A stretch of 61,585 nt of DNA, the filler included, from Bradymonadales bacterium (GTDB taxonomy: Bacteria; Bdellovibrionota; UBA2394), in assembly GCA_007693605.1 (NCBI GenBank). It is 4 parts of 4 records of this genome, joined end to end, with 100 filler letters (N's around TTAATTAATTAA, not from the genome) between each part and the next. Parts side by side here need not be neighbours in the genome. Positions count along the whole stretch, not along the records: positions 44,217 to 61,585 come from REDG01000038.1; 3 more parts are not named here. One strand, written 5' to 3'. The position numbers were made by a program, and so were the translations under genes. Positions 51,318-53,624 of this stretch are shown piece after piece (within the stretch, counting starts at the first letter, position 1; every line of letters starts with the position of its first letter). A model generated the notes under the pieces. It did no database searches. It was not told the origin of the DNA and was given only the letters and a program-made list of their open reading frames with translations.

Positions 51318-52139
51318 CTAGCTAAGTGGGATAACAAATTGTCTAGCAAGTGCAATGATCATGACGGAGATGAAGATTCCAAGAATGGGCCAGAAGAGAA
51401 GAGAGGCCAGAGCGATGGGGTAGCAGAGCGCTCTTTGAATAGGGTTTAGGCAGCTCTTTAAGGCAGTTTGATCGAGCTGGTATTTTTTGGCATACGAAGA
51501 AGAAACAACTGCTTTGGCATACCTCAAACTTCGAATCAGAAGTGTCCAGGTCCAAGATTGAAAGTAATAGAAGTGATCATCCAGAGGGATCTGGTTTTGA
51601 AGTTCACTTTCAATTTTTCGCTCGATGGGCAGGCCCAGAATCTGAGCAGCAAAACTAAGGGATGGAGCAATCAAGAAGATGTAAACACTCAGGCTTACAC
51701 TGGAAATGAGTAGTTCTTTCTCATTCAGAACTTCCATGAAGTACGGTGTAAATGCGAGGACGGAGATTATGAGTGCTAGAGAACCATGATGAAATATGAG
51801 AGACAATCGACCTGCCCAGATCAGTGACCGACGGTCCCAATCCCCCATTTTTGCTTCTAACTCTTCGGATGTGAATTTGAGGACTGCCTGACAAAAACGA
51901 TTGAAATAAAGAGCCCTCAAGAAAAACAGACTAGACAGGCAGCCAGTCAGGGAGACCATTGTGCAGCACTGGATGGCGATCCACTCGGGCCACCAAGTCT
52001 TTCTCCAACTGTCGAGAGCCCGGTCGCTAACCATAAACATTGGAAGGAATAGTGCAATCATTACAACCAATGTCAGTCCGGCCGCCAGCATCATTGGGGG
52101 AGTCACTAAAGTATTGAGGAATGGCAGCTCCTCTATCAT
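51318..52139 (-). CDS. Multi-pass membrane protein, candidate immunity protein
   Basis: Hydrophobic 273-aa ORF coupled (ATGA) to the upstream toxin-like gene. Confidence 0.6.
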   Translation of the reverse strand: MIEELPFLNTLVTPPMMLAAGLTLVVMIALFLPMFMVSDRALDSWRKTWWPEWIAIQCCTMVSLTGCLSSLFFLRALYFNRFCQAVLKFTSEELEAKMGDWDRRSLIWAGRLSLIFHHGSLALIISVLAFTPYFMEVLNEKELLISSVSLSVYIFLIAPSLSFAAQILGLPIERKIESELQNQIPLDDHFYYFQSWTWTLLIRSLRYAKAVVSSSYAKKYQLDQTALKSCLNPIQRALCYPIALASLLFWPILGIFISVMIIALARQFVIPLS

Positions 52140-53140
52140 GGCCGAGTCTCCTCGTTTGGAATGAATGCATTCGCTGTATAGTCGAAGCCCAGGCCCACCA
52201 AGACGAGCAGTCCGATTCCTCCGGCAACGCAGAGGACAGTCGGAACGAATCCGAGCGGCCCTCCAGCCGAAGTGGCGGCCGGGATTGCTAGGCAGGCTTT
52301 AACGGTATAGCCCTTCGCAAACGCGCCCACGGCTAGACCCGTCCCTCGCGTTGCGGCGTAGCCACCGACCCTTACTGGATGCACGCCTCGGTCAAGATAG
52401 TTCCAGCTCTGTATACCGATATCGAATAATGAGAGTCCAAATAGCACCCGTTGGAATCTATATCTCTTTGCAAATCCGACCACCTTGCCAAAGCTCGCTG
52501 CAAAGCTGCGATATCGGGTGGGTTCGCTGGTAATGACAATAAAACCTCTCAATGTTACTTGGGTTAAGAGCCATCTCTCAATACGTAGCCTCTGCTGCTG
52601 TCTCTGCAAAAAGAAGAGTTCCAATTGACGAATTTCGATCTGCAGACTTCTTTGCACATTTAAGCTTAAGCCAAGGGAATGGGAGTGGAGATGTGGAGCA
52701 ATAGCATCTGAAAAATCCATCAGAGGTCCTAGTCCAGTCACATAGTGAGCGGGGCTGTGCTCGGCGATTTGGGATAGGGTCGATAAGTTATCTGCTTCAT
52801 TGAATACAATTTCTTGGACTTCTGGATCTGCGGATCGCCAGATCTCGTGAATCTTCGGAGCTTGAAGTTCCAGGTCTTGGCGGTATTGGGGGTCGTTGAG
52901 ATTCCATTGACTGAAGTTTGGAAGTAGAAGGGCTTGGTCCGGAAAGATCAAATCTCCGTCCCGAATGTGAGGATTTAGCTTCTTGACCCACGCAAGCGCT
53001 TGCGATCGCTTCTTTCTTTCATGAGCGAGGGCGTGAAAGCTTCTAAGAATTCCATCTAAGCTATCGCCACTCTTCGTTCGATAAAGCAGTATGAAATCGT
53101 CTTCAGAGCTCGAAAGTTCCTTCGGGAGCTTTAGCGGCAT
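52136..53140 (-). CDS. LysM-domain protein with C-terminal Gly/Ala-rich hydrophobic helices (pore-forming-effector-like)
   Basis: LysM YRTKSGDSLDGI...LNPHIRDGDLIFPDQALLLP; C-terminal GLAVGAFA...CLAIPAATSAGG...LCVAGGIGLLVLVGLG; TAATG coupling to the tube gene. Confidence 0.72.
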   Translation of the reverse strand: MPLKLPKELSSSEDDFILLYRTKSGDSLDGILRSFHALAHERKKRSQALAWVKKLNPHIRDGDLIFPDQALLLPNFSQWNLNDPQYRQDLELQAPKIHEIWRSADPEVQEIVFNEADNLSTLSQIAEHSPAHYVTGLGPLMDFSDAIAPHLHSHSLGLSLNVQRSLQIEIRQLELFFLQRQQQRLRIERWLLTQVTLRGFIVITSEPTRYRSFAASFGKVVGFAKRYRFQRVLFGLSLFDIGIQSWNYLDRGVHPVRVGGYAATRGTGLAVGAFAKGYTVKACLAIPAATSAGGPLGFVPTVLCVAGGIGLLVLVGLGFDYTANAFIPNEETRP

Positions 53141-53577
53141 TAGACGACCTCAAGCTCTTCAACATCTAAGACCAGTCTTTCGTAGGCTGGTTGGTTCACT
53201 CCGTGAGCTTCAAAACTAGGACCTACCCACTCGATCGGCCAAGCTTTTCGAAAGTTGAATCGAAAAAGCTCCTCAGAATTCTCGCCCTTTAAGATGACGG
53301 ATCCCGATCTTTTGACGGGAGCTTTCCGAGCGCACTCCTGAAACCAGCTGACGAGCTCTTTGTTTCCAGTGAATAGGCGTACTAGTTCTAAGTTCCGGTA
53401 GCGAGTGCGACCCTTACGAGAGACTTTTTCGTGCATCGCTCCTTCTTGAACGGGAAGGCTTTCCGTGTTCATTCCAAGACCATGGATGCTCGTGAAATTT
53501 TTGGCCTGTAGGCCCTCGATGTTCACTTCAAACTGAGCGACATCAAAACTTTCAATTATTGAGTTAGGATTACTCAT
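53140..53577 (-). CDS. Phage/contractile-injection-system tail tube protein (T4 gp19 / Afp1-5-like)
   Basis: FEVNIEG..FTSIHGL...QEG...GRTRYRNLELVR...LVSW...RSGSVIL...FNFRKAWPIEWVGPSF...YERLVL; start MSNPNS at 53577 with AGGTG RBS. Confidence 0.88.
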   Translation of the reverse strand: MSNPNSIIESFDVAQFEVNIEGLQAKNFTSIHGLGMNTESLPVQEGAMHEKVSRKGRTRYRNLELVRLFTGNKELVSWFQECARKAPVKRSGSVILKGENSEELFRFNFRKAWPIEWVGPSFEAHGVNQPAYERLVLDVEELEVV

Positions 53578-53608
53578 TACTTTCACCTGCCTTTCTGGGG
53601 CTGAGTTA

Positions 53609-53624
53609 CGCAATCTTTGTGCCA
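53609..53624 (-). promoter_or_regulatory. Sigma54 -24/-12 promoter of the tail-tube operon
   Basis: TGGCAC-AAAGA-TTGCG, consensus match. Confidence 0.78.

Follow-up and report, generated by a model that had tools for sequence, protein, structure and literature searches.

Why would a bacterium keep a tube gene of a contractile injection machine apart from the rest of the machine, at the head of a small operon with a LysM-like protein and a membrane protein? We addressed this question at a locus of a Bradymonadales bacterium (phylum Bdellovibrionota in GTDB; assembly GCA_007693605.1), found in a stretch of 61,585 nucleotides (filler included) joined from four parts of the genome, from here on the window. 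The locus, which we call the cassette, lies in the middle of contig C45 (17,369 nt; window 44217-61585), 7-8 kb from either contig end. With a probability of roughly 0.78, we interpret it as an auxiliary tube-effector-immunity module of the genome's own injection machine, a contractile injection system of the Afp/extracellular contractile injection system (eCIS) type.

The initial annotation had described a consensus sigma54 promoter, three translationally coupled genes and an ADP-ribosyltransferase (ART) remnant behind them, and all of these were located (Table 1). The sigma54 site is one of two perfect TGGCAC-N5-TTGC sites within the whole window, and its function as a promoter is inferred. 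Both overlaps that couple the genes (TAATG and ATGA) are present. The first gene encodes a gp19/Afp-like tube; the second, a LysM protein with a Gly/Ala-rich hydrophobic end and two cysteines; and the third, a protein with several predicted membrane segments. As had been reported, neither sheath, baseplate, spike nor capsid genes were seen among the C45 open reading frames (ORFs; 11 scanned against Pfam).

The machine itself, which had been proposed to lie elsewhere in the genome, was found on contig C16, with both sheath and baseplate genes. This main locus spans ~22 kb (G000:C16:54279-76558; L007, L008) and includes a gp19 tube, two Phage_sheath_1 sheaths, gp25 (PF04965, E 2e-19), an Afp11 baseplate J-like gene (TIGR02243, E 2e-28, below cut-off; PF04865 not found), hub and spike OB-fold genes (matches to PF05954 and PF04717), an Afp15-type AAA ATPase, and an Afp13-like gene (E 4e-4). 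Weak gp19-like and CIS_tube-like genes are also present, the latter encoding 487 aa. Additional genes are an AAA ATPase with DUF1257, an FHA-like gene (PF16697, E 0.003, below cut-off), and a probable lipoprotein with a lipobox. Judged by its gene content, the C16 locus is an Afp/eCIS-type contractile injection system. The 22 proteins of the locus region gave no match to a DUF4255/Afp16 terminator, a tape measure, PAAR or DUF4157, a search that was not extended genome-wide; in that test, the 211-aa gene preceding the sheath was a candidate by position only. VipB, the sheath of type VI secretion systems (T6SS), was not found in any of the five genomes tested, which were this one (2.19 Mb in a 79-contig bin, 90% complete, 0.46% contamination) and four relatives. 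The gp19 gene was absent from all 13 further genomes belonging to this family. We rejected a prophage reading, since no capsid genes were seen on C45 or in the main locus.

The additional genes of the main locus mark an injection-system subtype conserved across the phylum, in two gene orders and with a patchy distribution (~5% of 401 genomes). Its loci are the one on C16, L055-L056 in genome G188, L059 and L091 in genome G374, and those of 13 further genomes (L058, L092-L097, L099-L105). This subtype may be anchored to the envelope, as the FHA-like and lipobox genes could mean. Directly behind the injection locus of G374 stands a tandem array of at least six nearly identical genes, each of ~758 aa (L091:1-13127, G374:C1).

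Four gp19 genes were detected in the genome. One belongs to the main locus, and the other three each head a stand-alone sigma54 - gp19 - effector - membrane-protein cassette of the same shape, on C45, C72 and C18. A fourth cassette was found on an unrelated metagenome contig (L019; one locus from 89 candidate stretches), with a perfect sigma54 site, a tube of 63% identity, a 351-aa effector and two tandem membrane-protein paralogues. The C45 tube is 68% identical to the C72 cassette tube and 48% to the main-locus tube, and the solved structures nearest to it by sequence are eCIS tubes. In a tube tree of 36 rows, the C45, C72 and L019 tubes grouped in one clade (98/99 support), separate from the main tube and not within the clade of second tubes from other loci; the C18 tube was a long branch of unsure placement. 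Left out of this tree were the first tube of G124, both G154 tubes, the G050 tube and one 692-aa fused frame. Word-based searches with the tube yielded 3 genuine relatives among 14 candidates, and pattern scans of genome contigs gave no true one.

Cassettes and main locus also share a regulatory signature. The genome carries rpoN and 58 strict sigma54 sites (12.6 expected in base-shuffled sequence). A strict site precedes all four gp19 operons, compared with 36 of 2196 ORFs genome-wide, and in C16 it stands before the first gene of the main sheath-tube operon. In other genomes, 13 of 15 loci have a site (12 strict, 1 relaxed) 617-669 nt upstream of the major sheath, and among 20 effector genes without a tube, 7 have one 30-54 nt upstream (2 strict; background 19/784 ORFs). 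By eye, the 58 sites precede many genes for exported proteins and lipoproteins and a pilin-like gene on C70; a predation regulon is possible, to judge from these positions.

For the putative effector of C45, we delineated a LysM-like region (residues ~17-75), a helical middle, and a colicin-like hydrophobic hairpin (~215-325). The LysM match is below cut-off in this protein alone (E 0.027), PF01476 is matched by 18 of the 19 family members at E<=0.05 (best 4e-9), and the predicted model of the N-terminus matched a LysM domain with probability 0.92 (E 1.1). The C-terminus holds one strongly hydrophobic segment (294-323), Cys283 and Cys304, and 31% Gly+Ala over the last 90 residues. A signal peptide is not evident, with no hydrophobic segment at the N-terminus.

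The C45 and C72 effectors share 29% identity across their full length, and the C18 effector is remote, matched only by a profile with gammaproteobacterial members (E 3e-5). All three cargoes belong to one family and are paralogues that have diverged rather than toxin domains that were exchanged, and for this reason the swappable toxins of the initial annotation were an overstatement. What stands of its payload-cassette proposal is supported by the main locus, the recurrence, and an effector-like family tied to injection machines. Full-length C45 effector matched the full-length profile (LysM included) of 14 tube-less relatives at E 1e-18. Outside the LysM, mean identity among family members is 18-22%. 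Searching representatives with HMMER gave 271 matches at E<=0.001; five of the 150 matches listed span the full length (two from this genome), and the others cover LysM only. With word-based searches, the effector found only itself, and the C-terminal profile A9 found four proteins. Neither the effector C-terminus nor the immunity family has a matching family in Pfam or NCBIfam. The pair of a LysM protein and a small two-helix protein is common in the phylum without a tube. Genome G374 (L085-L088) has nine full-length copies and two partial matches scattered along the genome, with partner genes of ~175 aa that do not match the immunity profile. In G507 (L135:3605-7966), the C-terminal region of the family appears at the N-terminus of a ~1450-aa open frame, a weak match that may be chance.

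Is this family linked to injection machines? A LysM-free profile matched 12 of 401 phylum genomes, and 11 of these 12 carry gp19 (background 22/401). Nine of the 11 positive genomes other than our own gave training rows, chosen by effector match and not by gp19 status; the two outside training, G374 and G138, are both gp19- and sheath-positive. Within family f10, the sole gp19-positive genome of 100 is the one carrying the effector family. Among eight tube-positive genomes tested, a wider profile added G188 and G039 (full length) and G166 (partial). In a control of 131 genomes, matches beyond the LysM occurred in six, all gp19-positive, and four others gave LysM-only matches. Gammaproteobacteria, the class of genome G401, had 10 positives among 350 genomes, nine with VipB (background 37/201) and the tenth with gp19. 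Where flanking sequence was available, a small two-helix gene follows the gammaproteobacterial effector in nearly all loci, often as tandem copies; an hcp-like neighbour was not seen there by eye.

The gammaproteobacterial members lead to a described effector. One of them matches 74 plasmid records, which include PAAR fusions and WP_064702971.1 (= Pse1b), a protein enriched in the T6SS-dependent secretome of Pantoea (bioRxiv 10.64898/2026.08.01.741415). Pse1 lies directly behind hcp, is predicted to be colicin-like and has a membrane immunity gene (PMC9796082). The phylum-only profile A7 aligned with Pse1b over 285 columns at 96.8%. Moreover, colicin and pyocin pore domains took seven of the top eight places among the 13 PDB matches of a 33-member C-terminal profile (colicin Ib E 3e-4, pyocin S5 8e-4, E1 1.4e-3; eight colicin/pyocin chains from 3e-4 to 0.8). 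Thus, the C-terminus resembles pore-forming colicins, weakly but consistently, and pore formation is a prediction only, for Pse1 as well.

The third gene of the cassette encodes a putative inner-membrane immunity protein. Its 273 aa are probably two fused units of ~135 aa each. Against a profile without cassette members, the C-terminal unit matched (E 8.5e-6) and the N-terminal unit went undetected; the small two-helix family of this profile stands behind nearly all effector relatives. The two membrane proteins on L019 (138 and 159 aa) match the C72 membrane protein in both of its halves, and the second of these halves matches the C45 protein. Therefore, the long membrane proteins are probably fused pairs.

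Taken as a mechanism, sigma54 would induce the three cassettes jointly with the main operon, and the cassette tube paralogue would co-assemble with the main tube. Carried on or in the tube, the effector would be shot into an adjacent Gram-negative cell, and there its colicin-like hairpin would enter the inner membrane from the periplasm and depolarise it. The downstream membrane protein would protect the producer and its kin in an allele-specific manner. The LysM is probably a trafficking or retention module rather than the toxic part. Killing need not involve peptidoglycan binding by the LysM, which is degenerate in gammaproteobacterial members and dispensable for toxicity in TseVF (PMC12861213). 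AlgoCIS has been demonstrated to carry cargo in the tube lumen (PMC8894135), and the effector of a Vibrio hcp module is delivered only when the main Hcp is there as well (PMC9765294).

Several results weigh against the auxiliary module. Even with the wider profile, the effector family is missing from three of the eight tube-positive genomes tested. Related genomes are not independent and Fisher values overstate the association, and this is why we give the links to injection machines as counts. C16, C18, C45 and C72 are joined by binning only (0.46% contamination, GC content 0.48-0.50). The G188 and G374 loci have the same gene order as ours and no sigma54 site. The C-terminus of the C45 effector scored E 0.17 against the profile without cassette members (3e-6 for the C72 and 3e-5 for the C18 effector). 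Alone, the C45 effector was not significant against Pse1b (E 0.13), and therefore membership of a Pse1-like group holds at family level only; the immunity profile did not match the gene behind Pse1b, and the phylum-only profile A9 found no colicin. The predicted model of the effector is poor, with a predicted local distance difference test (pLDDT) score of 52, and below 50 in the C-terminal region. Foldseek gave no match at E<=0.001 with this low-confidence model and VIA-align only generic helical bundles (best Z 8.2), neither of which has a bearing on the colicin reading.

The strongest competing explanation concerns the tube. The effector-immunity pair could be real while the adjacent tube is a passenger duplicate that gives a promoter and extra subunits, with no cargo specificity. 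It differs from the auxiliary module in the role of the tube only, and for that role we rate it a serious contender at somewhat below even odds. Outside this genome and L019, no gp19 gene was adjacent to any of 20 phylum effector genes or to the gammaproteobacterial loci examined, and a tube cassette was lacking in the 18 examined of the 21 other gp19-positive phylum genomes. With most relatives having no adjacent tube, a dedicated tube is therefore not generally needed, and for the same reason the tube as a dedicated chaperone is the weakest step of our proposal. However, the separate clade of the C45, C72 and L019 tubes fits a retained role, and the cassette tubes are intact, translationally coupled or nearly so, in an arrangement present in two organisms.

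Alternatively, the two downstream genes could be a bacteriocin-like toxin-immunity pair released by lysis or vesicles, without a functional link to an injection machine. A colicin-like C-terminus with a LysM could suit a diffusible toxin, and genome G142 (330 contigs), a point against our own reading too, carries the pair with no gp19 or sheath detected; G032, G128, G112 and G042 have LysM-only matches without gp19, some of which might be remote members. We nevertheless find it unlikely, given the near-complete confinement of the family to gp19- or T6SS-positive genomes, the PAAR fusions, the T6SS-dependent secretion of Pse1b, and the lack of an evident signal peptide. It is more improbable still that the cassette encodes alternative baseplate modules, with the LysM protein as an Afp7-like tube initiator or tape measure, a concern already raised with the initial annotation. 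The LysM domain of Alg7 binds baseplate wedges (PMC8894135), and the main locus has a weak CIS_tube match without LysM and no identified tape measure. We rejected the Afp7 reading because the effector has no tube beta-barrel; besides, its LysM is N-terminal instead of C-terminal, and it has no similarity to the CIS_tube-like protein of the main locus (probability 0.04%). The low identity outside the LysM, the up to nine scattered full-length copies per genome, and the relatives in T6SS genomes without gp19 also argue against a structural part. Least credible to us is decaying debris or a binning artefact. The ART fragment and a broken pair of frames just downstream (Table 1) would fit it, as would a 79-contig bin, whereas three intact coupled genes recur in three places and the same cassette sits on an unrelated contig. 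In run X1, a 9.6-kb contig also spans the cassette without differences, although X1 may be the source and not independent.

Among known systems, the auxiliary module we propose is close in architecture to the Hcp auxiliary module hcp1b-DUF4225-Imm4225 of Vibrio parahaemolyticus (PMC9765294), in which genes for a tube paralogue, an effector and a small immunity protein of the membrane likewise lie apart from the main cluster. Its effector acts in the periplasm, as proposed for ours, and its tube cannot replace the main tube. Unlike Hcp modules, the cassette has a gp19/Afp1-type tube (PF06841) in place of Hcp, a genome lacking VipB, and another effector family. By analogy, the cassette would work like an Hcp auxiliary module, yet its tube and machine belong to the Afp/eCIS class. 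The main locus shares with Afp, PVC and AlgoCIS the gp19 tube, sheath, gp25, baseplate, split hub and spike, and Afp13-like and Afp15-like genes (PMC8894135, PMC8213781, PMC11297309), and departs from described eCIS in its second AAA ATPase with DUF1257, FHA-like protein and probable lipoprotein. Some eCIS toxins carry LysM (EAT14) or have immunity genes (PMC8894135, PMC8213781, PMC11297309). In published surveys, eCIS toxins lie in or near the operon, mostly without immunity genes (PMC8213781, PMC11297309); in our genome, the cargo genes are scattered, and each comes with a tube of its own and a candidate immunity gene.

The hcp-pse1-psi1 genes and orphan Pse1b/c of Pantoea agglomerans resemble the cassette in effector family (by profile), similar length, colicin-like prediction, membrane immunity gene, and a place that immediately follows the tube gene, as well as in having orphan copies and PAAR/VgrG fusions (PMC9796082; bioRxiv 10.64898/2026.08.01.741415). 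They differ in being T6SS-served and inside the main cluster, in identity (~14%), and in immunity proteins without detectable kinship; Pse1b also lacks a Pfam LysM match. Pore-forming colicins and pyocin S5 are similar in the C-terminal helices and hydrophobic hairpin, by the weak consistent profile match, but our family has no receptor-binding or translocation domain, and a Pfam Colicin match was found in 0 of 19 members. TseVF-TsiVF of Vibrio fluvialis, likened by description only, lies in an hcp-vgrG auxiliary cluster and combines a LysM at the N-terminus with a region at the C-terminus that disrupts membranes; TseVF, however, has 1197 aa, is VgrG-loaded via an adaptor, and is paired with a TPR-like immunity protein (PMC12861213). 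We found no account of stand-alone gp19 - effector - immunity cassettes in the full-text literature (mostly outside subscription papers, supplements excluded), and the available parts of PMC8651086, PMC11937823 and bioRxiv 10.1101/2021.10.07.463556 do not describe them.

Around the cassette, C45 is rich in toxin-antitoxin genes (Table 1). The ART-like fragment is possibly a relic of an earlier cargo. L019 likewise has MFS-like and kinase-like genes next to its cassette. Elsewhere in the window, contig C38 (1-20066) bears ~517-nt inverted repeats at both ends, 94% identical.

Table 1 The cassette and its neighbours on contig C45, in window coordinates
Feature	Position	Strand	Basis or remark
sigma54 (-24/-12) consensus, TGGCAC-AAAGA-TTGC	53610-53624	minus	perfect match; 33 nt upstream of tube ATG
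gp19/Afp1-type tube paralogue, 145 aa	53140-53577	minus	PF06841 E 1.5e-21
Putative effector, 334 aa, LysM-like N-terminus	52136-53140	minus	family profiles, Pfam
Putative inner-membrane immunity protein, 273 aa	51318-52139	minus	five hydrophobic segments
ADP-ribosyltransferase-like fragment, 78 codons, without start codon	51084-51317	minus	PF03496 E 0.002, below cut-off
Broken frames, which we take to be antitoxin-like and PIN-like	50660-50860	plus	just past the ART fragment
Solute-binding protein, histidine kinase and major facilitator superfamily (MFS) genes	46608-50651	plus	
Aldo/keto reductase and 319-aa protein with HExxH motif	44373-46327	minus	
HipA gene and upstream helix-turn-helix gene	55440-57036	minus	
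Nucleotidyltransferase/HEPN-like pair	60426-61342	minus	judged by eye

More broadly, and as a rather doubtful extension, uncultured Bdellovibrionota might run an Afp-type machine in T6SS fashion. One structural locus and dispersed effector-immunity pairs, from a family shared with T6SS, would form a sigma54 regulon, and in the present lineage specialised tube paralogues would be rings specific to one cargo, each loading its own toxin into a mixed tube. The FHA-like protein and the lipoprotein may anchor the machine to the envelope, for repeated firing without lysis.

How eCIS-type machines select their cargo and how producers escape self-killing are the questions that the cassette addresses. 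The three-gene unit can be tested alone, and one genome offers three natural variants for tube-effector and effector-immunity swap tests. Finally, our findings suggest that a phylum rich in predators has an injection weapon against bacteria, and that T6SS and gp19-type machines draw on one common effector family.

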